This document shows, piece by piece, positions 41,821 through 63,033 of a DNA stretch of 64,000 nucleotides. The DNA lies in the sequence record PZ386967.1; one strand, written 5' to 3'. The stretch comes from a phage. Made by a program: the position numbers and the translations under genes. The notes under the pieces are model-generated. The model saw only the letters and a list, made by a program, of their open reading frames with translations, searched no databases and was not told where the DNA came from. Each line of letters starts with the position of its first letter. The first letter of the stretch is position 1.

Positions 41821-43386
41821 TTACTTGTACAGGCCTGTCACGTCAATGGACTTGTGCTGGCGGTTGTACTCGGCGGTGTAATCATCCAACACCAGGTATT
41901 CACAGCAGCGGATTTTGCTTGAACCAAAATCATCGGTGACCGACACGATGTCACGCGGGTTCAGCTTACAGCGAACGACACGCTGTCCCACAGAACCGAA
42001 ACACTCCTTCAGGTAGGCCAGGGAGCACACATGCAGACCATATGAACACAGTTCGGAGTTGTTGTCGTTCACGAATGAGCGAGCCATGCGCACGATAGTG
42101 CCTGGGGCGTTGCTGATCGTGTTGCTATGCTTGTCCATGTAGTTGCCGCGCACCGATTTGTAGAGGATGATGTCACCATCTTCGTCAATTTCGATGTCAG
42201 AGTACGCCATGAACTCGTAGATGCGCCCAGACTGAACCAGAGAAGCTGACGGGTTCTGGAACATTTTGTCCATAAACTTCGCCATGCGGTCCAGGTTGTG
42301 GAAGTCACCCTTCAGCATCAGCGCCAGTACACGCTTGGCGATGGATGTGCCTGTGATGTCATGACCGGACCAGCGGACACGGTTGTCAGACACGTCTACC
42401 AGACCAGCAGCGTACTTCGCGATGGCTTCACGAGGACGCATCAGCGAGTATGCCAGCTTCACGTCTTTGTCTTTGATCGCCTGTACGATGCGGTCATAGG
42501 CCGGGTGTGAAGTGGTGATCGTTTCCGGCTTGCCGTCAATCGCGATAACAACGCTGTCAGGCAGAATCAGGATCTGGTGTTCGTTCAGGAACACGTCCAG
42601 GTCTTTCGCGCCGAAGTCCTGCTTGGTCTTCTTATCATCAGCCACTTCTTCAACGTCTTTGACAGCGACGGCGAATTCTACAGAAGACAGAGCCAGACGC
42701 AGGGTGCGACCGAGGATGCCATCAAAGTAACCAACACGGCGACGGGCATCCAAGGATCCACGGATAGGATAGGTTTCCCCGTCAACCACAACGCTGATTT
42801 CAACGTTGCTCGGAACTTTGTCCGCACCTTCTGACAGTGCCACAGAAATTTCTGCCATCTCGCCGATAGCTTCAACATCGAAAGCGCAACTATCACCTTC
42901 CACAGGAGTCAATTCAGACTTTTCAAAGAAAGCCCCTTTGAAATTGCCGTCGTTAGTGAGACACAGATACTTGTTGTGGTTCGGCAGATATGCCCCAACA
43001 TACCATTCTGTGCCATCTTTGTCTTTGGCCGTGCCGCCCGGTTGGACCTCGAATACTTCTTGTTCTTCCGGCTTGATAGGAGAGATCACAGTTACCTTGT
43101 TTTTCTCCTCGGTAATCCGGACCAACAGAGCGCGAGCAATGGTCTTGGCGGACACACCGTACACCTTGGCCAAGAATGCATTGCTGACATTACCTGCCGC
43201 CGAATCCCTTTGGATATTGGCGATCTGATCTGTTGTCAGGGATTTCAGCGAAGTAGGGTCAACACCAATTTCCGTGTCGGAAACACGTTGTACAGTCGAG
43301 CGGGGTATGCCCAACAGAGTAGCAATTGCGCTCTGGCTTTTGCCTTCCTTCAAATACTTCAGGATCTTTTCGTCAATCTTGTTCAT
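41821..43386 (-). CDS. rIIB: rIIB-like protein (N-terminal HTH)
   Basis: Immediately downstream of rIIA-like gene; N-terminal HTH (SQSAIATLLGIPRSTVQR); C-terminal block NAPGTIVRMARSFVNDNNSELCSYGLHVCS resembles remembered T4 rIIB C-terminus. ORF track start 43473 is TTG; ATG at 43386 used. Confidence 0.5.
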   Translation of the reverse strand: MNKIDEKILKYLKEGKSQSAIATLLGIPRSTVQRVSDTEIGVDPTSLKSLTTDQIANIQRDSAAGNVSNAFLAKVYGVSAKTIARALLVRITEEKNKVTVISPIKPEEQEVFEVQPGGTAKDKDGTEWYVGAYLPNHNKYLCLTNDGNFKGAFFEKSELTPVEGDSCAFDVEAIGEMAEISVALSEGADKVPSNVEISVVVDGETYPIRGSLDARRRVGYFDGILGRTLRLALSSVEFAVAVKDVEEVADDKKTKQDFGAKDLDVFLNEHQILILPDSVVIAIDGKPETITTSHPAYDRIVQAIKDKDVKLAYSLMRPREAIAKYAAGLVDVSDNRVRWSGHDITGTSIAKRVLALMLKGDFHNLDRMAKFMDKMFQNPSASLVQSGRIYEFMAYSDIEIDEDGDIILYKSVRGNYMDKHSNTISNAPGTIVRMARSFVNDNNSELCSYGLHVCSLAYLKECFGSVGQRVVRCKLNPRDIVSVTDDFGSSKIRCCEYLVLDDYTAEYNRQHKSIDVTGLYK

Positions 43387-43417
43387 CTTGTAGTTCCCAC
43401 GTTGGTTAACAGGACTA

Positions 43418-46174
43418 TTATGCCCTGATAATGGAATTTGAAATAACGTCCAAGTAATCCGAAGATTTTTCAATCGGGTTCAGGGCGCTTGGTTTGTAAT
43501 TCTCTTTCAAGAACCGGACAACACGATGACGCTCGATGGTCAATCGGTTTTCCCGCCTTGCTTTCAATGACGGAGTCCTCGATATATCAAACGGTGTAAA
43601 TCCATGAAACCGCAACACATCCGAAGCGCATTCAAAGATCTGTAGCATCTGATGTTCTGAACGGAATATCTTTTCGTCACGCTCGTTGGCGTACAAATTC
43701 ACGTTAAGAGAATGTATTGTGTCCTGGAAATGGCTAAATCGACGCTTGTCATTGATTGAAACCGGGGCTTTCGCCAGGCTTTGGTAATGACGTACAGTCT
43801 GCTCATCCAAGATATCGTCCACAACTTTCATTAACTTGTTGTAACGGCTGACCAATTTGCCATAACGATCGTCTTCAACATCACCAAACGCCTGATGAAC
43901 CAGATGGCTCCCGTATTTTAATCGATCCGCCCCAAGGCGCATGCGGCGGTATGATTCCAGTATGCGCTTGGCGCTATCGCGCTCCATCATAGGCTTCACG
44001 TTTTCCAACATGATCTTCAGGATTTCATCGATCGGTATGAAGACCTCTGGGAACTTCTTCATCATTGGCACGGATTTACGACGAGCCAAGAAGATTCGGT
44101 TGTGAACGTTCAACATATCGCTGATGTACACTGGCTTGCCTTCATCGTCGACACTGACTGCGTGCTCATACAGAGATTTACGAATACCCCGCGCCGCCGC
44201 AGTCGTCAACGTTCTGTCCATCACCTGATGGATACACGCATGGCCAGACACCTCAATATAGACGATGCGCTCGCCCTTGTTGATGATATCTGAGATCTGG
44301 TCGCCCGTTAGTTCTTCATACTGGTATATGTCGAAGTTGCTGCGCGTGAACGGAAACAGGCCGGGGTCTTTGGTGACCGGGGGCGTGACATACGACAGTT
44401 CGTTCATGAACTTGACTTCAGCAGGCTCCAACACCGCACTCAGCCAATCGACGAACTTGTCGGCGAAGCACAGATAATCAACCGTCGTTTCTTCTTTACC
44501 AATCCAAGTTTCAAAGAAATCATAGAGAGCCTGAGAATTCTTGAACGCAGGGTTGTCCTTAGATTGGTTGCGCTTGGTGACATAGGATGTGTTCGGCTTG
44601 GCCACGATGACTATCGTCCCTGTATCTTTCAGCTGCTTGATCTTCAGGTTACGAGCACGAACACTATCTTCGATCACCACAGTAACATGCTGGCCGCGAT
44701 CAATCCACTTCTGGATTTCTGAAATGGTCAAATTACTGGACTCACCCCAGTCATAGAAGATCTCCATAGAGAACGGTGATGACAGCTCATTGAACGGCGC
44801 GGTATGGTCATAATCGCGATCAATCTCAACAGGCAGCGGGTAACGGTAATATGAATCATGAAAGCGCTTGTCGGCCGGGTATTCCTTTTCAACCATCTTG
44901 CGGAACCCACTGCCGAACATTTCACTCAGTTTTACCTTCTCCATATACAGGGCAAGAGGACCACGCTTACACGCCAGCTCCAGGTCACGCATCTTTTCTG
45001 TCAAGATTGCATTGGCGGTGCCCTTAAACTCCTCAGAGAGCGTCTCACGCGTGAATTCGTCATATGAAAGGTCTTCACGCGACGGTGGTACGTTCAGCGA
45101 TCCAAGTTCGAAGAACGTATAGGACGATGGAAACTTGCTCATGATGGAAGCAGTGTCCGGGTCCAGCTGGTCCAGGTCAATCGGGTACGACACGCCACCC
45201 ATTACAGCATAATGGGTGTTCCCCTGGCCTTTCGGCTGGATGTACGTGTTGTTGACCTTGAAATCATAACTGATATCTTCCCAGCTGAAGCGGTATGAAG
45301 CGTTCTCAACAATTGGACGTTGTTCAGGGCGCATAACACGACCAAGACGGACCAGTTCATCGGAGAATGCAGAGAAACGAGCGTTCTTCACCGGGATCTT
45401 CACCGTCATACCGTTGAACTCATCGGTGTCTTCCGGTTTAGGATCACGGGTTTCAAGATCTTTGGTGATCAGATCAACAGTCGGGATGCGCTTGGCATTC
45501 AGGTACATCAGGAAGCGATGGAGTTTACCGTCCATGCGGCTTTCCACAGTGAACGAATCCGATACCGCAAATGGTGATTTGGAGCCAAGACCGAATGCCC
45601 CAATCTGATCATCATCTTCTTCCTTCGTACTGTGGAAGAGAGTGGTATACAACCCAGGCGTACGAATGATTTCACCATCTTCGCGACGGAACACTAGACC
45701 ACCATTATAGAACGCAGGCACGCCGATGACCTCAGCTGAGTCAGGGATCTCGTCTTCCTTGACCACCATGTTGCCTTCCAGCAGCACTTCATCTTCCTGC
45801 GCTGGGATAGGCTCGCCAATGATCTTCTCGAGTGGTAGACCGATGCCGTAATCACGGATTTCCAGCCATGGCTCAAAGTCATCAGGCAGATGCACAACAA
45901 CCTGCTTACCCTTCGGTGCAAGGTATTTGCTATGGCGGGCAGGAGGCGGAGTGAGAGGCGCGTAGTGGGATGCTACCATACGGTGCATACGATCACGCAT
46001 GCCATGGGAGTCGATGGCGTTACAGACGGTTTCGCGCAGGGCTGCAGCCTCTTTGTAACGATACAATGATGAGAACAGAGTCTCAAACATCTTATCGTTC
46101 ATCTTCACGTTGAACGCCTGCCCCTGAATGGAAGACGACGAGCGGATAAAGTGCTCGGACTTGCGCATTTTCAT
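43418..46174 (-). CDS. rIIA: rIIA-like protein with GHKL-type ATPase domain
   Basis: Bergerat-fold motifs: N-box ETVCNAIDSHG, G1 DYGIG, G2 GAFGLGSKS; 918 aa; synteny with rIIB-like and topoisomerase genes as in T4. Confidence 0.55.
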   Translation of the reverse strand: MKMRKSEHFIRSSSSIQGQAFNVKMNDKMFETLFSSLYRYKEAAALRETVCNAIDSHGMRDRMHRMVASHYAPLTPPPARHSKYLAPKGKQVVVHLPDDFEPWLEIRDYGIGLPLEKIIGEPIPAQEDEVLLEGNMVVKEDEIPDSAEVIGVPAFYNGGLVFRREDGEIIRTPGLYTTLFHSTKEEDDDQIGAFGLGSKSPFAVSDSFTVESRMDGKLHRFLMYLNAKRIPTVDLITKDLETRDPKPEDTDEFNGMTVKIPVKNARFSAFSDELVRLGRVMRPEQRPIVENASYRFSWEDISYDFKVNNTYIQPKGQGNTHYAVMGGVSYPIDLDQLDPDTASIMSKFPSSYTFFELGSLNVPPSREDLSYDEFTRETLSEEFKGTANAILTEKMRDLELACKRGPLALYMEKVKLSEMFGSGFRKMVEKEYPADKRFHDSYYRYPLPVEIDRDYDHTAPFNELSSPFSMEIFYDWGESSNLTISEIQKWIDRGQHVTVVIEDSVRARNLKIKQLKDTGTIVIVAKPNTSYVTKRNQSKDNPAFKNSQALYDFFETWIGKEETTVDYLCFADKFVDWLSAVLEPAEVKFMNELSYVTPPVTKDPGLFPFTRSNFDIYQYEELTGDQISDIINKGERIVYIEVSGHACIHQVMDRTLTTAAARGIRKSLYEHAVSVDDEGKPVYISDMLNVHNRIFLARRKSVPMMKKFPEVFIPIDEILKIMLENVKPMMERDSAKRILESYRRMRLGADRLKYGSHLVHQAFGDVEDDRYGKLVSRYNKLMKVVDDILDEQTVRHYQSLAKAPVSINDKRRFSHFQDTIHSLNVNLYANERDEKIFRSEHQMLQIFECASDVLRFHGFTPFDISRTPSLKARRENRLTIERHRVVRFLKENYKPSALNPIEKSSDYLDVISNSIIRA

Positions 46175-46768: not shown

Positions 46769-46969
46769 TCACTTACGTTTGCGCTTGTTCTTTCCATAGG
46801 TCTTCGCCTTCTTCTTGCGGGTTACAGATGGACGACCATGTCCCGGTTCGCCGGGTGTGCCACCCTGAGTGTAACGACGCCCCCACATATCATCACCACG
46901 ATGCGCGGCGACGATTTCCATTTCTGACAGCGCTAGCATAGCAGCAACAGCCGCAGATGATTTCTTCAT
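46769..46969 (-). CDS. small Lys/Arg-rich protein (hypothetical)
   Basis: C-terminus TRKKKAKTYGKNKRKRK. Confidence 0.3.
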   Translation of the reverse strand: MKKSSAAVAAMLALSEMEIVAAHRGDDMWGRRYTQGGTPGEPGHGRPSVTRKKKAKTYGKNKRKRK

Positions 46970-47421
46970 TTCGTTTCCCCCTTGGCAGCATAGGACAGTG
47001 CCTGAACAATCATTACAGCCAGATCGATCGGCGAGTAGGTGCTGTTCAGATCTTCTCGAACACTCTGCTCGATTTCTTCATCAGACTGGACCACAGGACA
47101 GTTCTTCCCCTGGCGACGGCGTTCTGTGTTGATCATATCACGCAGGAGCAGATCGGTGAAGGAGTACTCGTCAAAGTTCTCCAGGTATTTCTGAATCCCA
47201 GTGGATACAGGGGTTGGCTCCGGTTCCTGTTCCCCAGGATCTTTCAGGGCAGCAACAGTGGCATCAATATCCCACAGAGGGTTCAGCAGTAACAGAAGAT
47301 TAACTGTTTCTCCTGACTCTGAAGTCGGGTTCTTTCCCAGCACCTTGTACAGATTCTTCAGGGTGCTGTCGAAGGTCAGAACGGTCTGCGCCAGTTCTTC
47401 ATAAGTTGGTTTGGTAGTCAT
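46966..47421 (-). CDS. hypothetical protein
   Basis: 151-aa ORF. Confidence 0.35.
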   Translation of the reverse strand: MTTKPTYEELAQTVLTFDSTLKNLYKVLGKNPTSESGETVNLLLLLNPLWDIDATVAALKDPGEQEPEPTPVSTGIQKYLENFDEYSFTDLLLRDMINTERRRQGKNCPVVQSDEEIEQSVREDLNSTYSPIDLAVMIVQALSYAAKGETK

Positions 47422-47480: not shown

Positions 47481-47526
47481 CACGAAAAAGGGATAGAGCA
47501 ATAATACCCTATCCCCTTTTATTGAA
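47481..47526 (-). terminator. terminator hairpin fused to a TTCAAT-box / TATTAT promoter (terminator-promoter unit)
   Basis: GGGATAG...CTATCCC stem followed (minus) by TTTTTCG; minus TTCAAT at 47526-47521 and TATTAT within the loop. Confidence 0.45.
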
Positions 47527-47532
47527 GAACGA

Positions 47533-47946
47533 TTAGTCTTCAGATTCTACTTTGCCGCCTCGTAGATCCCGAACTGGTTTACCGTCCGGTGCCATCACAT
47601 AAATGGTGTTGATTGTCTCAAACCAAGACAGCTGGTCAACACCCTCGGTGTATGGAGTCACCGGAACAGAAGTCTTGACCTCTTTGCCTTTCGTGTTCGG
47701 ATGTTCAACCACATCCAAGAACGCACATTTCCCGCTCGGAAGGATAACACCATCAGTAAACAGCACGATCTTCTTGCGAGGGTTGCTGGCCTCACCCAGG
47801 CACACCACCAGATGATGGATCATCTCGGGGCGGTCAATCAACAAGTCGTCTTTGATAATCCCTTGCTTGATAGCAGAGATCACCACTTCATCCAACAGAG
47901 CCTGCTGTTGGTCCAGTGTCAGGGATTCAGTGAGTTTCACGCTCAT
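47533..47946 (-). CDS. hypothetical protein
   Basis: 137-aa ORF. Confidence 0.35.
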   Translation of the reverse strand: MSVKLTESLTLDQQQALLDEVVISAIKQGIIKDDLLIDRPEMIHHLVVCLGEASNPRKKIVLFTDGVILPSGKCAFLDVVEHPNTKGKEVKTSVPVTPYTEGVDQLSWFETINTIYVMAPDGKPVRDLRGGKVESED

Positions 47947-47950
47947 GACA

Positions 47951-48520
47951 TCAGCCTTTGAAGTTAATCGGTTTCTGAATACCAGCGTCGAACGCGGCCT
48001 GGGTACGGGTATCGCTCACCACCTGGCAAGTCTTGTCAAGGTCGATGCGCGGGTAGCCGAACATGCCAGCAATCAACGAACCAGGGAACTGAGCCAGCTT
48101 GGTTTCGTATATTGTGCAGATATCCAGCTTCTTGGTCTGGCTGATGCGGAATTCATCACGCCCAGAACTGATCACCACCTGGATCTCTTTGTACAGGCTG
48201 GAATCGAACTGAATATTCTGCTCCTGGATCCACTGCATGACGGCCTTGGAACCATCAGCGCCATAACGCCCTTCGAACGTGCCTTTGATCACTTCCTTCA
48301 GACCGTCTTTATACATGTCAGGAATCTGCGCCGTCTCCTGAACTTTGAGCGTGTAGTTGCTCAGGTAGTTCTCGGAGTCTTTGTTGAACTTCCTAACCTG
48401 CTGCTCAGTGCGGTTGAAGTCGTTGAAGTAGCTGATGACTGTACCGATGCCGAGAATCACTACACCCAGCAAAGCCAAACCAATTATCCAACCTGTTGCA
48501 ATACCCTTAGATTGAGACAT
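47951..48520 (-). CDS. LemA-family membrane protein
   Basis: N-terminal TM helix; C-terminal FPGSLIAGMFGY matches the conserved LemA FPxxIVAGMFGF block. Confidence 0.5.
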   Translation of the reverse strand: MSQSKGIATGWIIGLALLGVVILGIGTVISYFNDFNRTEQQVRKFNKDSENYLSNYTLKVQETAQIPDMYKDGLKEVIKGTFEGRYGADGSKAVMQWIQEQNIQFDSSLYKEIQVVISSGRDEFRISQTKKLDICTIYETKLAQFPGSLIAGMFGYPRIDLDKTCQVVSDTRTQAAFDAGIQKPINFKG

Positions 48521-48538
48521 TCTTACTTCCTCTTTTGA

Positions 48539-49651
48539 TTAAAAATTAAACGGATAACGACGACCACCATTGTACTCCATTCGCTGCAATATGAAAATTG
48601 CGGTGAATGGTAAGCAACCCAGCAGAACAATAACCACAACTTCCCAGGTCTTGAGTTCCCGCCACTTCAGGTACTCCATTTCCTTCATCTCAACGCGGTT
48701 GTAGCCTTTGGTGATGTTAGCGACAACATCAGCCATGACACCGACGCCCATGTCGTGGCCTGTGAGAGTCATGCCATTGCGAGAGTGTAGTTCACGGTTA
48801 TACATACCATCAGCGAACGAAGTGCTCTTACCCCAGTTGATCTTCAGATCTTTGCTGATGTCGGTCACGACGATAACGTCGTTCTTTTTACCACCATCCC
48901 AAGCATAGACCAAGCCCTGGAAGTATTCAACTGGCTGACCGGATGTCACAACCCAGACGATATTGACCTGACGTGAAGCACCTAATGTTTTCAGAGTATT
49001 GTTCAGATAGTCGTTCCAGTATGTGGTCGGTAACGCCAGGCCGGACACATTCAACACACGAGTGACACGATAGTAGTCATAGACCTCAGGGTACTTGGGA
49101 ATCTTGTCTTTGAAGCGCTCAGCAAACTGCTGGTCCGAGCGAGAGAACAGAGAGTCCTTGTTACCCAGCACATAGTTCATGTAGGAATGCTCACGGGCTG
49201 CGGGTTCGCCGATCTGAACCTGCGCCCAGCGCGGCGGTTGACCAAGACCACGGCGATCAATACGGTCAATCGTCAGATTACCGACAGTAGTCAACACATC
49301 CCAGTCCACGTCATATGAATGCTCATAACATGTACTGCAATGGCGAGTGCGGGTACAGGACTTGCTACTGCCGGAGCCAGAGCACGATGTGGTGTAGTAG
49401 CAGTTGCATTCATATGAATGCTCACAGCTCACCTTATTCCGCTCCTTTGCAGTGACGTACCCGTTCAGGATCTCAACATCCCCTGAACTGCCAAGGGAGA
49501 ACGCAGCATAAGCCCCCGCCTGAATCAGACAGGATAGCACCACTACAATCGCGGTCGCTATCAGAGTCTCTTTCGGCTCATGGGTCTTGCGGTGGTAGGC
49601 CACAAACAGGATAGCCAGTACCAATGGCACACCAAACAGGAGGTAGATCAT
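48539..49651 (-). CDS. membrane protein with Cys-rich extracytoplasmic segment (hypothetical)
   Basis: TM helices at both ends; CEHSYECNCYYTTSCSGSGSSKSCTRTRHCSTCYEH cluster. Confidence 0.4.
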   Translation of the reverse strand: MIYLLFGVPLVLAILFVAYHRKTHEPKETLIATAIVVVLSCLIQAGAYAAFSLGSSGDVEILNGYVTAKERNKVSCEHSYECNCYYTTSCSGSGSSKSCTRTRHCSTCYEHSYDVDWDVLTTVGNLTIDRIDRRGLGQPPRWAQVQIGEPAAREHSYMNYVLGNKDSLFSRSDQQFAERFKDKIPKYPEVYDYYRVTRVLNVSGLALPTTYWNDYLNNTLKTLGASRQVNIVWVVTSGQPVEYFQGLVYAWDGGKKNDVIVVTDISKDLKINWGKSTSFADGMYNRELHSRNGMTLTGHDMGVGVMADVVANITKGYNRVEMKEMEYLKWRELKTWEVVVIVLLGCLPFTAIFILQRMEYNGGRRYPFNF

Positions 49652-50034
49652 TTGGATTCACCGACGAGCTGCGCCTTGGTCATCCCAAGGAGTTGATCTT
49701 TATGCTCAGGATTGGCACCGTTCTTTAACAACAAATCCCAACGCTCTTCATGGTACTGTGGGTCCAGTGCTTCATCAAATGTGATGTGGTGGCGGAACAT
49801 AACAGTTGCCACTGAATGGACACAATGAGCGGTTGCACGCTTCAGAGTATGCTCTGATGTGATGTGCTTTTGGTATTCAATCCCCATCAAATCCAGTTCT
49901 CTGAAAAGACAAGATAATGACAGGACACCCTGCGAATGCAACGCGACGATAGTGTCTTTCTTAGGGTGCAGCATACCATCTGTTTCTTTCATGAACAGAT
50001 CATACAGATACTGCTTGTATTCAGACTGTGTCAT
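49648..50034 (-). CDS. hypothetical protein
   Basis: 128-aa ORF overlapping upstream start. Confidence 0.35.
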   Translation of the reverse strand: MTQSEYKQYLYDLFMKETDGMLHPKKDTIVALHSQGVLSLSCLFRELDLMGIEYQKHITSEHTLKRATAHCVHSVATVMFRHHITFDEALDPQYHEERWDLLLKNGANPEHKDQLLGMTKAQLVGESK

Positions 50035-50101
50035 TTAGATTCTCCCATGACGAGTAGAGACATATCTTCAATTCGTTGTATTGCCATGATGTAGATCCTT
50101 G

Positions 50102-50141
50102 CAAAAAGAAAGGGGAACGGGCTAATATTAACCCATTCCCC
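50102..50141 (-). terminator. terminator hairpin with TTCAAT-box promoter elements
   Basis: GGGGAACGGG / CCCATTCCCC stem, minus-strand TTTCTTTTTG after it; TTCAATAAA box upstream on minus strand. Confidence 0.45.
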
Positions 50142-50167
50142 TTTATTGAAGAACGCAATCCGCAGTC

Positions 50168-50338
50168 AGATTACTTTTTCTTCAGCTCTTCCAGCTTGGC
50201 TTCAATTTGGTCCAGAATCTCTTTACCTTTCTGGACGATGGCTTCACCATCTTGCGCGTGTTTACGGAAGACCAAAGCACCAGCGATGAAGCCGACAACC
50301 GCGCCAGGAAGCGCATAAACCAGCAGATCTTGTAACAT
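50168..50338 (-). CDS. small membrane peptide (56 aa, hypothetical), not in ORF track
   Basis: Hand-translated minus ORF MLQDLLVYALPGAVVGFIAGALVFRKH...EELKKK with strong SD (GAGGATATTATC) and terminator downstream; coordinates approximate. Confidence 0.35.
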
Positions 50339-50374
50339 GATAATATCCTCGCTTTATAGGCGAGGATATTTATA

Positions 50375-51610
50375 TCAGCGTTTCAAGAGTGCCATGAGGT
50401 TGACGCTGCTGGACTTCGGCTTGTCCTCAACCTTGCGCACAGGCATCTTCAGGTTCGTACATACCTCGGATGGCTCCCAGCGCGTACCCTTTTGCAGGTG
50501 CCAGATATGCAGAGGAACACCAGTCTCAAAGAACACAGGCATCTTCCACTTCTGGACGCCTGGAACGTGCCCTGCAGGAGCCTTTTCGCACAACAGGGTA
50601 TCTGGCAGCCAGAGCGAACGGGCTTCCCAGAGCGCTGCGCAGGAGTATTCAGGCCAGACGCGTTCCATGTAGTCTATTTCATCCCAGGTACGCTCTGCGT
50701 CCCACCCGATGTAACGGGTATTCTTCAGTCGGAAGAATTTCTTCAGCCAACAAGCACCGGAGGTTTCAAAGTTCAGACGGTTGATGAACGTCAGGTGTCC
50801 GAACTCAGCCACACAATCCTGGAACGCCTGCTCAAGGTCGGCCTCAAGGATGTCACACTCTTCATCCGTGATAGGGCAACCGTTGATCTTTTTCTTCCCG
50901 TGTTTAGTCACCCAATCGTCACGGTTGGACAAGAACGCCGCGCCATTACGGTTGGACTCGCTTCCATCACGATCACGCAGCATGAAGCCAGGGACGTCAA
51001 TGGTGTATTCGTTCCCGAAGACCATGTTCAGGGCTTCCAGGAAGTTCCAGGCGCTCAGGCGACCGAAGTATTTCCAGGACATCGCCGTGTCCCACAGCTG
51101 GGTGAATTGTTCTGTCTTATCGATGCACACCAACATCCCACGGAAAGCGTCATATTGAGTACGGCCAGCCAGCCAGTCAATATAGGACTGAACACACGGA
51201 ATCATCTTGGACTTGCGGTAGCGGCAATCGGTATCGAATCGCATGCGATCAAAGTTCAGATTATACCAATCAGAGAAGCGCTGCATCTCTTCCTTAGACT
51301 GAGGCGGCACAGGGAACTCACTGTAGATCGTCCACGGCCCGACGGCGTTATAGCAACAACCCCACAGGAATGCCATCCAGATCTTGCGCTCGACTTTCTG
51401 TTCGAGGCTGATGCCTTCAGTGACTTCGATCGCATAGTCCATCAGACGCATCTGCTGGTTGTGCTCTTCTGTGTAGGACAGCGCCTCCACCCAAGCCTTG
51501 AGCAGGTACATGCGATTCTCAGGCTTGCGATAATCAACAGCCAGGTCAATCGGGTACTTCCATTCAGCCGGAGGTGTATAGCCCGTCGGCATTTTAGATA
51601 AATGATGCAT
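50375..51610 (-). CDS. hypothetical 411-aa protein (candidate DNA-modification enzyme by context)
   Basis: GAGGAAG SD; Trp/Cys-rich soluble protein; no motif recognised. Sits in a block with P-loop NTPase and HAD phosphatase next to the DNA polymerase. Confidence 0.4.
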   Translation of the reverse strand: MHHLSKMPTGYTPPAEWKYPIDLAVDYRKPENRMYLLKAWVEALSYTEEHNQQMRLMDYAIEVTEGISLEQKVERKIWMAFLWGCCYNAVGPWTIYSEFPVPPQSKEEMQRFSDWYNLNFDRMRFDTDCRYRKSKMIPCVQSYIDWLAGRTQYDAFRGMLVCIDKTEQFTQLWDTAMSWKYFGRLSAWNFLEALNMVFGNEYTIDVPGFMLRDRDGSESNRNGAAFLSNRDDWVTKHGKKKINGCPITDEECDILEADLEQAFQDCVAEFGHLTFINRLNFETSGACWLKKFFRLKNTRYIGWDAERTWDEIDYMERVWPEYSCAALWEARSLWLPDTLLCEKAPAGHVPGVQKWKMPVFFETGVPLHIWHLQKGTRWEPSEVCTNLKMPVRKVEDKPKSSSVNLMALLKR

Positions 51611-51971: not shown

Positions 51972-52171
51972 TTTGGTTCCTTGAATATTTTATAGCCAGC
52001 AGCGCCGATAGCCATAATCGCGCCGATACAATACAACATGGTCAGGTTCATCTTCTCTGAGGTTGTTAAGTCCAGAGGGGTGAAATGATAGGCTAGGGCA
52101 GTACACATTGAAACGGCTGCCATAACCAGACCAATGAACAACAGATAATTAGACAACCGTTTCATGATCAC
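51968..52171 (-). CDS. small membrane protein (hypothetical)
   Basis: 67 aa, two hydrophobic helices. Confidence 0.3.
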   Translation of the reverse strand: MIMKRLSNYLLFIGLVMAAVSMCTALAYHFTPLDLTTSEKMNLTMLYCIGAIMAIGAAGYKIFKEPK

Positions 52172-53085
52172 CCCTTCTTCATCAGGTCAAGGAGAGAGCG
52201 CGACGCTGCCTTCGTTGCTTCTGGCTGGGCGCTCGCCTTGGTTTTAGTTTTGGATGCCTTCTGCGGCTTCTCAGGGACTCTGTGCGCCAAAGGATCCTGG
52301 CCGCCGATTTCACGAGTCATCGGATTGGTTTCACAGTAGGCGTAGAAGTCTTTGGTGTCCATGTTAACTTCACGCAGTTCGGACCGTATCTGATGACAAA
52401 TCGCATTACCCACAACCCACAGCGGGGCGTCGTATGGGAGCACCGCCAACTCGGACTGCTGTTTGGTCGTGAACTCCTGGGTGTTGGTCTCTGGCGCTTT
52501 ATACAGGATATCCTGTCCGCTGTAATCATCAACAGCCACAGTGAAGCCCAGCGCCAGCATTTCGGCCTTCGACTTCTCAAACTCCTTGGAGTAAGATTCG
52601 TTGCGTGACCAGCCGGAGTTCCCTGCTTCTTTACCAGATCGACCACGGATACGAGCATCGTACTGATAGCGGTCGGGGTACGCAAAGTACAGCAGCGCCA
52701 ATGATTCAATCGGATAGTTCTTGAACATCCATTCAGGACGCCATTTGTCCGACAGCATGAGGGGTTCACCCTCACACACCAGAGTGTATCCCTGAACCAA
52801 CCAGCACTTGATTAGATCACGAGCAATATCGCCTGAGCCTGTAGCAGCATGGATTGCATCCATTGAAGTCCAGGAAGCCAGGCCGGATTTGTTAGACACG
52901 GTGTACTGTCCAACGAAGATTAACTTCAGCTCTCCGAACTTCAGGCCAAACGGGCGAGTCTTGTCACCAACGGTGTAGGTCAGTTCGGTAGGCTCCAGCT
53001 TCGTACGGAGCCATTCGATGAACTGGACCACTCTCGTACCCTTGCCCGTGGCCGAGGTGCCTTTCACTACGATAATTTTTGCCAT
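52168..53085 (-). CDS. P-loop NTPase / kinase (putative)
   Basis: Walker A VVKGTSATGKGT at N-terminus; 305 aa. Confidence 0.45.
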   Translation of the reverse strand: MAKIIVVKGTSATGKGTRVVQFIEWLRTKLEPTELTYTVGDKTRPFGLKFGELKLIFVGQYTVSNKSGLASWTSMDAIHAATGSGDIARDLIKCWLVQGYTLVCEGEPLMLSDKWRPEWMFKNYPIESLALLYFAYPDRYQYDARIRGRSGKEAGNSGWSRNESYSKEFEKSKAEMLALGFTVAVDDYSGQDILYKAPETNTQEFTTKQQSELAVLPYDAPLWVVGNAICHQIRSELREVNMDTKDFYAYCETNPMTREIGGQDPLAHRVPEKPQKASKTKTKASAQPEATKAASRSLLDLMKKG

Positions 53086-62058: not shown

Positions 62059-62147
62059 TTGGCGGAAGGTGAAGGATTCGAACCTTCGGGGGCTAAAAGC
62101 CCCACTCGATTAGCAGTCGAGTCCCTTAAACCTCTCGGGCAACCTTC
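62059..62147 (-). tRNA. tRNA-Ser (anticodon GCU), class II with long variable arm
   Basis: Hand-folded: acceptor GGAAGGT/ACCTTCC, anticodon stem CTCGA/TCGAG with loop CTGCTAA, variable hairpin GGGGC-TTTTA-GCCCC, T-arm GAAGG-TTCGAAT-CCTTC, discriminator G, encoded CCA. Confidence 0.8.
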
Positions 62148-62368
62148 CAATTTGGACGGGCTTCACACCCGATTGAGCATTTGATCTGCTGTAGCCCAAC
62201 TCCCCGCGCTTCTCAGCGCCGATTGGTTAACTGGCGACCAGTGCCTTCTGGTTCGATCTCCTGGAACTTTACAGGCTTTGCGCCCGACCATTTCTGGAAG
62301 TTGGGGCATCGTTTCCGATGTGGAGTCACCCCATTTTATACACAGCTGGCTGCAACGCTTACTGTGTT

Positions 62369-62452
62369 TGGTGTGAGTGGATGGATTCGAACCACCGCGC
62401 TGTTACGGGGAGATTTACAGTCTCCTGCATTCGACCGCTCTGCCACACTCAC
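62369..62452 (-). tRNA. tRNA-Tyr (anticodon GUA)
   Basis: Acceptor GTGAGTG/CACTCAC, anticodon stem GGAGA/TCTCC loop CTGTAAA, long variable arm, T-loop TTCGAAT, discriminator A, CCA. Confidence 0.75.
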
Positions 62453-62709
62453 ATTTGGTCTGCCGCTGCGTGCTGGGCCACGCTCGAGGACATCGGCCAT
62501 CCTTCCTCAGCTAATCCACGCAGCGGTAGATTTGTATCAGAGTGTCCGGTGTAGCAACCCGTGAGGTGCGCACTACTGTAGCCTCTACACTCTGAATTTG
62601 GTGGGCGTTACTATCGTCGTCTTCGGATTCCGTTCGGCTATTGGACAGAGGCTTGGAGCTTGTCGGTCGCGTACTTTATGCCTATTCACTTTCGTTCACA
62701 CCCATTGTC

Positions 62710-62785
62710 TGGCGACGATGGCAGGACTTGAACCTGCGACATACGGTTTAACAGACCGCCGTTCTACCGACTGAACTACATCGTC
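62710..62785 (-). tRNA. tRNA-Asn (anticodon GUU)
   Basis: Acceptor GACGATG/CATCGTC, D-arm GTTC-AGTCGGTA-GAAC, anticodon loop CTGTTAA, T-arm GCAGG-TTCAAGT-CCTGC, discriminator G, CCA. Confidence 0.85.
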
Positions 62786-62794
62786 TTGCAAATC

Positions 62795-62819
62795 ACTATA
62801 CCATATAAAGTTTATTGAA
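62795..62819 (-). promoter_or_regulatory. TTCAAT-box / TATAGT promoter positioned to start transcription just upstream of tRNA-Asn
   Basis: Minus TTCAAT 62819-62814, 13-nt spacer, TATAGT 62800-62795, 9 nt before the mature tRNA 5' end. Confidence 0.45.
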
Positions 62820-62956
62820 CAAACATTTATTTTACAACAAACTGTATTGGCGGGGTCTGAGGCTTTTCACCTCACCTGCTGGGTTTGGCCGCCCAGCCGT
62901 TCTCTATGAGGATTCACTGTCCGGACAGCTATCCATTAAACTATCGCCCCTCAATA

Positions 62957-63033
62957 TGGTGATCCTGATTGGGTTTGAACCAATGACCAATGAATTATGA
63001 GTTCACTGCTCTAACCGACTGAGCTACAGGACC
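62957..63033 (-). tRNA. tRNA with CAU anticodon (elongator Met or Ile2-lysidine type)
   Basis: Acceptor GGTCCTG/CAGGATC (one G-U), D-arm GCTC-AGTCGGTTA-GAGC, anticodon loop CTCATAA, T-arm ATTGG-TTCAAAC-CCAAT, discriminator A, CCA; no initiator-specific features. Confidence 0.75.

Follow-up and report, generated by a model that had tools for sequence, protein, structure and literature searches.

A LemA-like protein paired with a predicted TPM-domain membrane protein in large virulent phages

We propose that two neighbouring genes in a 64,000-nt stretch of phage DNA (sequence record PZ386967.1; hereafter the window, with positions counted along the whole stretch) are very probably the viral version of a bacterial membrane module made of a LemA protein and a TPM-domain protein, with the two-gene operon as its core. 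The initial annotation of this DNA had placed a LemA-family gene and a cysteine-rich membrane partner at 47951-49651, and both are found exactly there as minus-strand open reading frames (ORFs). The source genome is that of a large virulent phage of the Ackermannviridae, of Aglimvirinae type and Agtrevirus/Limestonevirus-like, and the 2.7 kb around the pair share 87-98% identity with phages of Escherichia, Shigella, Salmonella and Dickeya (YX22, PC3, RPN242, Ag3 and Limestonevirus isolates). As to what the pair does, we favour, with somewhat less than even confidence, a periplasm-side module for assembly or maintenance. The TPM identity of the partner, the equivalence of the pair to a bacterial operon, its altered architecture and its wide distribution appear in no annotation or paper that we found, and a search for literature on phage LemA or TPM proteins returned none, its matches to papers on Kiwa and on E. 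coli annotation being accidents of wording. The two genes, whose products carry transmembrane (TM) helices, and the spacer between them are as follows.

47951..48520, minus strand: LemA-like gene, 189 amino acids (aa), N-terminal TM helix and helical ectodomain
48521..48538, minus strand: intergenic spacer between the partner and LemA-like genes, 18 nt, with ribosome-binding site GAGGAAG
48539..49651, minus strand: partner gene, 370 aa, inner-membrane protein with a TM hairpin, a Cys/His beta region, a TPM domain and a C-terminal TM helix

The partner had been described as overlapping the LemA-like gene, which is not the case: the 18-nt spacer with its GAGGAAG separates the two, and the partner instead overlaps its own upstream ORF (ATGA).

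The identity of the smaller protein is best seen when the whole family, rather than the single sequence, is compared with LemA. The features that matter for this comparison are the following.

48431..48487, minus strand: TM helix of the LemA-like protein, residues 12-30, from hydropathy; predicted N-in with the C-terminal domain periplasmic
48053..48088, minus strand: LemA C-terminal signature FPGSLIAGMFGY, residues 145-156
48026..48118, minus strand: span from Cys135 to Cys165, a candidate disulfide pair

Alone, the 189-aa protein, which is assigned to PHROG 1383, reaches 13.8 bits (E 0.051) against Pfam LemA (PF04011), where the gathering cut-off is 26.2, and the match spans residues 125-158 only. 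Eight of 39 homologues give weak PF04011 matches (best E 0.0016), a precomputed PF04011 match is absent from all 98 database homologues, and phmmer with the single protein finds no match in the PDB. A profile of the 39 phage-family homologues (A1), searched with hmmsearch against all PDB sequences, has as its top match 2ETD, the LemA protein TM0961 of T. maritima (E 0.0016, profile 30-158 against chain 10-155). The 2ETD sequence, rebuilt from this alignment, was used to gather genuine PF04011 proteins, 22 of which were aligned to form a second profile (A3). Between A1 and A3 hhalign gives a probability of 97.3% (E 1.9e-11) and aligns 157 columns that reach from the TM helix to FPGSLIAGMFGY, at about 22% identity between the phage family and genuine LemA. 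In these alignments FPGSLIAGMFGY lies opposite FPGVIFAKMFGF of 2ETD and opposite FPxVIxAxxFGF of the genuine LemA proteins. The rest of the LemA architecture is present as well, with a length of 189 aa (185-208 aa in genuine LemA), a single N-terminal TM helix and the C-terminal FPxxxxAxxFGF motif. The AlphaFold2 (AF2) model is all helical (predicted local distance difference test, pLDDT, 82.6); among its Foldseek matches 2ETD ranks 4th and has the list's highest probability, 0.41 (E 0.63, TM-score 0.30-0.36), a comparison in which helical bundles are not discriminated.

We accept the LemA homology because the profile-profile match, the length and the architecture agree, and judged by its sequence relationships the 189-aa protein is a divergent member of the LemA superfamily lying outside the current Pfam model. 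The LemA signature singled out by the initial annotation thus survives as one part of a whole-domain homology and falls short where the Pfam threshold is applied. A few database entries already name the small protein LemA, namely that of RPN242 and the UniRef name for Klebsiella phage May. Weak matches of the single proteins to Spore_III_AF, DUF948, LeoBC and Rv0361 in the Pfam, NCBIfam and PADLOC scans were set aside as noise, all of them lying on the TM/coiled region.

The partner protein is assigned to PHROG 2087 (unknown function; E 1.5e-162), and its parts are listed here in the order of the protein.

49511..49651, minus strand: TM hairpin, residues 1-47, hydrophobic at 1-19 and 29-47 with the basic loop HRKTHEPKE (20-28)
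49319..49426, minus strand: Cys/His cluster, residues 76-111, with C76, H78, C82, C84, C90, C99, C105, C108 and H111
48662..49039, minus strand: TPM domain, about residues 205-330, with the invariant W-x-GGKKND-V motif at residues 251-259
48587..48643, minus strand: C-terminal TM helix, residues 337-355, followed by a short basic tail (…GGRRYPFNF)

Searches with the 370-aa sequence against Pfam, NCBIfam, PADLOC and the PDB sequences give no match of value, and it is through its homologues and a structural model that the TPM fold emerges. Ten of 45 homologues scanned singly give weak matches to the TPM family PF04536 (best E 1.8e-4), whereas the window protein itself gives none. The AF2 model, built on the alignment of the 45 homologues (pLDDT 89.7, predicted TM-score, pTM, 0.78), contains the TPM alpha/beta fold, which Foldseek matches to 9h70 with probability 0.99 and to 2kpt with 0.94; a further fold match is 6adq_J, the TPM-fold subunit of a respiratory supercomplex. 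Comparison by hhalign with a single Thermotoga TPM protein reaches only 34% probability (E 4.3e-4), and the stretch aligned in this weak match is the conserved W…G…N-[DG]-hydrophobic-strand motif, which places phage W-x-GGKKND-V-I-V-V opposite Thermotoga W-G-I-G-Q-K-E-K-N-N-G-V-L-L-L-V. A phmmer match of the partner to the KLRC1 lectin in the PDB, on the Cys-rich stretch (E 0.022), was rejected as chance-level.

Two TM helices, one at each terminus, had been ascribed to the partner; hydrophobic segments do lie at both ends, and a Kyte-Doolittle scan finds three of them rather than two (1-19, 29-47 and 337-355). The AF2 model has helices at residues 2-20 and 26-54, and the Ag3 orthologue is annotated with three TM domains. 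The predicted layout is a TM hairpin with a cytoplasmic loop, a periplasmic domain of ~285 residues and a TM helix. Following the model, the domain order would be the TM hairpin, a beta-hairpin region stapled by Cys and His, a small alpha/beta linker domain, the TPM domain and the C-terminal TM helix. The region of ~150 residues that is additional to the TPM domain is built of long beta-hairpins and carries the invariant motifs DVDWD, RIDRxG, PPRW and YPxVYDYY, and within it the Cys/His cluster sits on unusually long modelled beta-strands (57-74, 79-91, 98-109 and 114-121).

That the partner holds a dense Cys cluster, as first noted, is borne out across the family. Counted in 120 aligned sequences (119 homologues and the window protein), C76 is kept in 120, C82 in 119, H78 and H111 in 116 each and C108 in 115, and each residue of the cluster is kept in at least 101; the number of Cys is seven, as in the window, in 92/120 sequences, which have all seven, and five in 23/120. 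From sequence conservation, the odd number of Cys and the presence of two invariant His are compatible with disulfide staples, with a metal site or with the two combined. Residues 57-121 (49289-49483) also give Foldseek matches, at a probability of 0.3 or less, to the FliF MS-ring collar and to the pore stems of anthrax PA, CDTb and iota toxin, on which we place no reliance, and the modelled beta-hairpins may, as one possibility, belong to a ring-forming or membrane-reaching oligomer.

The initial annotation had stated that bacterial lemA genes usually pair with a second membrane-associated protein, and this is borne out in Thermotoga and Niallia. There the stop of lemA overlaps the start of the very next gene, whose product is a TPM protein of family PF04536; the one from Niallia shows an evident signal peptide and, besides a C-terminal TM helix, a tail rich in Gly. 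The Thermincola lemA has an unassigned gene of 263 aa as its next neighbour, with NfeD and flotillin beyond it.

Both large domains of the phage pair probably face the periplasm of the infected Gram-negative cell, where the two proteins would act as one complex. The phage LemA-like family has a charge bias similar in sign to that of bacterial LemA, with a net charge of +1.3 in the N-tail and -0.4 over the 15 residues past the TM helix (+1.9 and -1.6 in bacterial LemA), and we predict an N-in/C-out orientation for the LemA-like protein because its N-tail is positive and its post-TM stretch neutral to negative. The positive-inside pattern fits both proteins, and with it the earlier proposal that the Cys cluster of the partner is periplasmic, which stands as a prediction. 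In 97 aligned sequences (the window protein and 96 homologues) Cys135 and Cys165 of the LemA-like protein are both present in 61, both missing in 34 and found singly in two. Gain or loss of the two together is the pattern expected of a disulfide, and hence of a periplasmic domain, and Cys135 and Cys165 are on this sequence pattern likely to form a disulfide pair.

The two genes are widespread and travel together. By tblastn the LemA-like gene is found in 502 phage records and the partner in 487. Homologues of the two range from E 1e-116 (LemA-like) and 1e-248 (partner) down to about 35% identity, and judged by this conservation both ORFs are real genes. The phages that carry the pair include all genera of the Ackermannviridae, T4-like Aeromonas phages, ICP1, T5-like Vibrio phages, jumbo phages of the Erwinia RAY/Deimos-Minion type, giants of the GAP32/K64-1 type, and phages of Acinetobacter, Delftia (PhiW-14), Sinorhizobium, Xanthomonas and Burkholderia; weaker tblastn matches come from Lak megaphages and Bacillus phage G. 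Among 80 IMG/VR loci fetched with the partner profile, 78 carry the LemA-like gene as the next gene downstream of the partner, in the same orientation, and the stop-bounded ORFs of the two lie a median of 4 nt apart; the other two loci end at a contig edge. A search of 185,579 species genomes gives 28 matching loci, mostly on contigs of metagenome-assembled genomes (MAGs), and the genes are adjacent in 23 of them, 22 in the same order and one reversed. Beyond the Ackermannviridae no third gene is kept with the pair across lineages. A full HMMER scan of 1.84 billion representatives places 2,115 clusters (50% identity) in the partner family at E<=1e-3 and 718 at E<=1e-30, and nearly all of the 150 clusters listed have lengths of 340-390 aa. 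We conclude that the two genes form a mobile unit, tightly coupled and typical of large virulent phages.

The initial annotation had further read the pair as an imported module, and as a recent acquisition this does not hold: recent horizontal import is ruled out by normal composition and deep divergence, the GC content near the pair being 0.496 against 0.45-0.52 across the window. Any transfer would have to be ancient, because the pair has diverged far from the bacterial versions, with its genes in reverse order and one domain added, is of normal composition and forms a large viral family of its own. A full-length partner without a LemA-like neighbour occurs in four apparently cellular contigs, three of them high-GC and of Myxococcota type and the fourth a low-GC, Rickettsiales-like MAG in which it lies beside TrmB- and racemase-like genes; these lone partners hint that genes have passed between phages and bacteria, or that the partner has a function by itself. 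The pair is also carried by CP099927.1, a 938,616-bp Vibrio parahaemolyticus "plasmid", among mostly unannotated small genes and GmrSD-like and endonuclease V genes, and by its looks this replicon is a giant phage or phage-plasmid sooner than a plasmid of the usual kind.

The pair is not a virion component, and the label that says otherwise could be followed to no primary evidence. "Virion structural protein" stands on PHROG 1383, on the RefSeq copies of Ag3, ViI, phi 3, PhiW-14 and fHe-Yen9-04 and on some later GenBank deposits, and these names are what speaks for the rival explanation that the LemA-like protein is a component of the particle. The original deposits carry no structural label, the gene being a "conserved hypothetical membrane protein" in Ag3 and a "conserved uncharacterised protein" in ViI. 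In LIMEstone1, a close relative of the window, electrospray ionization tandem mass spectrometry (ESI-MS/MS) identified 39 virion proteins, and the orthologues ORF194/195 are not among them, so that the finding which the initial annotation had named as fatal to an envelope role, a structural place in the virion, is not what the virion list gives. The mass-spectrometry supplement for Ag3 does not list orf251/252. RAY gp46 is annotated "putative structural protein" and is absent from the inspected parts of the RAY/Deimos-Minion mass-spectrometry table, and two papers on phage RAY mention neither gp45 nor gp46. ViI proteomics is reported to have found 18 uncharacterised particle-associated ORFs, of which the LemA-like protein could be one (PMC3184105). 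Against a particle role also stand the TM anchor of the LemA-like protein, its homology to a membrane protein of cells and its obligate pairing with a partner that has three TM segments, and a trace detection in particles would accordingly fit membrane carry-over; we regard a place in the virion as extremely improbable.

The pair lies in a cassette of four ORFs (137-aa, LemA-like, partner and 128-aa) that is flanked on both sides by strong intrinsic terminators. The remaining features of the cassette and its surroundings are given here from upstream to downstream.

52168..53085, minus strand: 5-hydroxymethyldeoxyuridine (5-hmdU) DNA kinase, E 3e-158
50375..51610, minus strand: gene of the amino-acid:DNA transferase / aGPT-pyrophosphorylase type, E 7e-60
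50367-50374, minus strand: T4-type late-promoter box TATAAATA, directly past the stop of the DNA-modification gene
50109..50144, minus strand: intrinsic terminator upstream of the cassette, 16-bp stem then U run, -26.3 kcal/mol, z -5.5
49648..50034, minus strand: 128-aa ORF upstream of the partner, PHROG 5047, its stop overlapping the partner start (ATGA)
47533..47946, minus strand: 137-aa ORF, the final cassette gene, PHROG 4236, beginning 4 nt past the LemA-like stop
47485..47520, minus strand: intrinsic terminator closing the cassette, 16-bp stem then U run, -24.2 kcal/mol, z -6.1
43418..46174: rIIA, a neighbour of the cassette

The 128-aa ORF is transcribed together with the partner, and both it and the 137-aa ORF are conserved within the Ackermannviridae only. 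The LIMEstone1 record has terminators annotated at both corresponding places. In the window the two terminators share a 17-nt motif, GTTCTTCAATAAARGGG, that occurs nowhere else in the 64 kb, and ~60% of aligned columns are identical between them across roughly 75 nt; the two may belong to one family of terminators, or may mark a cassette boundary at which recombination takes place. The late-promoter box TATAAATA, one of only two T4-type boxes in the window, lies upstream of a 55-aa single-TM ORF (50171-50338, minus strand) and of the first terminator. A scan of the cassette for promoters gave no convincing sigma-70-type site, the count being no higher than in shuffled sequence, and a literature search for Ackermannviridae transcriptomics gave nothing useful on expression timing.

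At the upstream end an 18-codon ORF, MAIQRIEDMSLLVMGESK, at 50031-50087 (minus strand) overlaps the start of the 128-aa ORF. At the same position Ag3, RPN242 and LIMEstone1 have a 70-aa ORF (orf00249 / ORF192), and LIMEstone1 has the 72-aa ORF193 where the window has the 128-aa ORF. This corner of the cassette is variable, given that ORF sizes differ among Ag3, RPN242, LIMEstone1 and the window, and it possibly carries a deletion remnant. Further out, the genes at 50375-51610 and 52168-53085, just upstream of the cassette, are those of thymidine hypermodification and, like rIIA, belong to the typical gene surroundings in these phages; a 151-aa ORF just past the closing terminator (46966-47421, minus strand) encodes a full-length DUF7181 protein (E 9e-65); a 550-aa ORF at 41821..43473 is taken, by position, to be rIIB; and a cluster of four tRNA genes (Ser-GCT, Tyr-GTA, Asn-GTT and Met-CAT) lies at 62060-63033 on the minus strand.

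We propose the following model for the function of the pair. By analogy with cellular TPM proteins, it may tentatively be seen as a non-enzymatic, chaperone-like device for assembly or maintenance on the periplasmic face of the inner membrane. A large virulent phage shuts off host gene expression, and with its own LemA-TPM copy it could then sustain the inner membrane, together with the complexes there that transduce energy or serve secretion, through a long latent period until lysis; alternatively, the task of the phage copy might be the assembly of a phage envelope complex. Among cellular relatives, Psb32/TLP18.3 serves photosystem II assembly and YdjH works with PspA. The TPM domain is regarded as a chaperone-like assembly factor rather than a phosphatase, and the phosphatase or nucleotidase activity claimed for some members is disputed (PMC11237479, PMC12419801). 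TPM proteins that have been solved or modelled either help to assemble photosystem II or are accessory subunits in respiratory complexes, and CcoZ resembles the TPM-fold subunit of the respiratory supercomplex (PMC8267372). LemA, for its part, is linked to membrane stress. In S. pneumoniae lemA adjoins htpX and expression of both changes together (PMC8546594), and an F. columnare sppA mutant under membrane stress shows induction of lemA as well as of a TPM gene (PMC13236525).

Three other functions can be proposed for a membrane pair of this kind, each with some support from its position or layout. Both proteins are anchored in the inner membrane with predicted periplasmic domains, and their genes lie in an accessory region near rIIA. 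An inner-membrane anchor with a periplasmic domain is the usual layout of exclusion proteins such as T4 Imm and Sp, and in this way the pair might block genome injection or cell-wall penetration by later phages from the periplasmic side. Superinfection exclusion or envelope modification, which the initial annotation had suggested, is made less likely by the conservation of the pair in phages whose receptors and injection machines are unrelated. As a rule an exclusion protein belongs to one lineage and evolves fast, whereas the pair keeps its length and motifs across Ackermannviridae, ICP1, T5-like, RAY-like, GAP32-like, Acinetobacter and Sinorhizobium phages, whose receptors and tails differ in kind, and is homologous to a bacterial module in non-phage chromosomal contexts; we consider exclusion quite improbable. 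The same homology to a cellular module outside phage contexts, and conservation across phages with unrelated entry and lysis systems, count against a role in lysis timing, in which the pair would act as, or regulate, a holin/antiholin-type system like T4 T-RI and underlie the lysis inhibition of the group. Several points recommend this idea. In the original ViI record the partner (Vi01_203), whose product is entered as "conserved uncharacterised protein", bears "host lysis protein" as its gene name, a name for which we found no basis. By 2011 a holin had been recognised in neither CBA120 nor ViI nor Ag3, and CBA120 shows lysis inhibition at high multiplicity of infection (PMC3184105, PMC3121705). 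The pair is, moreover, a membrane pair with predicted periplasmic domains. At 370 aa with a TPM ectodomain the partner is unlike a holin (usually <220 aa), and its neighbours are not lysis genes; lysis control is, in our estimate, decidedly unlikely.

Counter-defence, the last of these proposals, would have the pair stabilise or mask the inner membrane so that membrane-sensing abortive-infection systems of the RexAB, Kiwa or Zorya type stay silent. The T4 rII genes protect against membrane-acting exclusion, the pair lies a few genes from rIIA/rIIB, and it is broadly spread among large virulent phages; a weak PADLOC match to LeoBC (E 8e-4) points the same way. That match, however, is near noise and on the TM/coiled region, the closeness to rII is seen in the Ackermannviridae only, and we know of no defence system that is countered by LemA or TPM proteins, which argues against such a target for the pair. 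We give this explanation little credence.

Several points weigh against an assembly or maintenance module built on LemA and TPM. The mechanism is argued by analogy, the bacterial LemA-TPM pair having, to our knowledge, no established function of its own. The Pfam scores of both the LemA-like protein and the partner are sub-threshold, and the fold match of the modelled LemA-like protein to 2ETD is weak (Foldseek probability 0.41). The co-occurrence count for Cys135 and Cys165 is inflated by shared ancestry, that is, confounded by phylogeny. The RefSeq label of the LemA-like protein as a virion structural protein stands on the same side. Nor does the stretch from the upstream terminator to the cassette show an evident promoter. 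Finally, the chaperone idea leaves the odd Cys count and the invariant His of the partner unexplained, and seven or five Cys with two His could signal a metal site or an enzymatic or ligand-binding N-terminal domain.

The breadth of the pair across unrelated large phages argues for a general, selectable role in the infection of diderm cells. A fuller version of this model, which we think unlikely as a whole, would have a periplasm-facing LemA-TPM assembly or repair machine keep respiratory or other inner-membrane complexes running after host shut-off, much as cyanophages maintain photosystems with psbA-type genes, and the Cys/His domain might adapt the module to infection by forming an oligomeric periplasmic collar or a metal site. 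Bacteria commonly have both LemA and TPM proteins, and the latter occur in chloroplasts as well; if the model is true, the phage pair would be the first tractable genetic handle on LemA-TPM modules in any organism. CBA120, LIMEstone1 and ICP1 offer clean genetic systems in which a deletion phenotype could reveal the role of the module. The analysis also gives a TPM domain assignment to a partner family that is everywhere annotated "hypothetical" and has no Pfam model, and it corrects the propagated "virion structural protein" label.

Compared with the systems that it most resembles, the pair is closest to the bacterial module. Bacterial LemA and the phage LemA-like protein have in common their size (186-195 and 189 aa), the single N-terminal TM helix, the charge bias, the C-terminal motif and a neighbouring TPM gene; the phage protein differs in its identity of about 22%, its sub-threshold Pfam score, its covarying Cys pair and the position of its gene downstream of the TPM gene, the order being TPM then LemA-like in phages and lemA then TPM in bacteria. 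Set against PF04536 proteins of the TLP18.3/Psb32/MOLO-1 and YgcG/YdjH types, the partner in the window has no Pfam match, carries an N-terminal TM hairpin where a bacterial TPM protein has a signal peptide, contains the added Cys/His-rich region of ~150 residues and lacks the Gly-rich C-terminal tail of the Niallia protein. T4 Imm and Sp are phage-encoded inner-membrane or periplasmic proteins made in the infected cell, and what they share with the pair is being phage-encoded membrane proteins; no search found homology between them, and the LemA-TPM pair is spread over many phage families, whereas the small Imm and Sp proteins occur in relatives of the T-even phages only. The T4 holin T and antiholin RI likewise form a two-protein membrane system with interacting periplasmic domains, one globular and one helical, yet they have no sequence or fold similarity to the pair, and T-type holins co-exist with it in T4-like Aeromonas phages.

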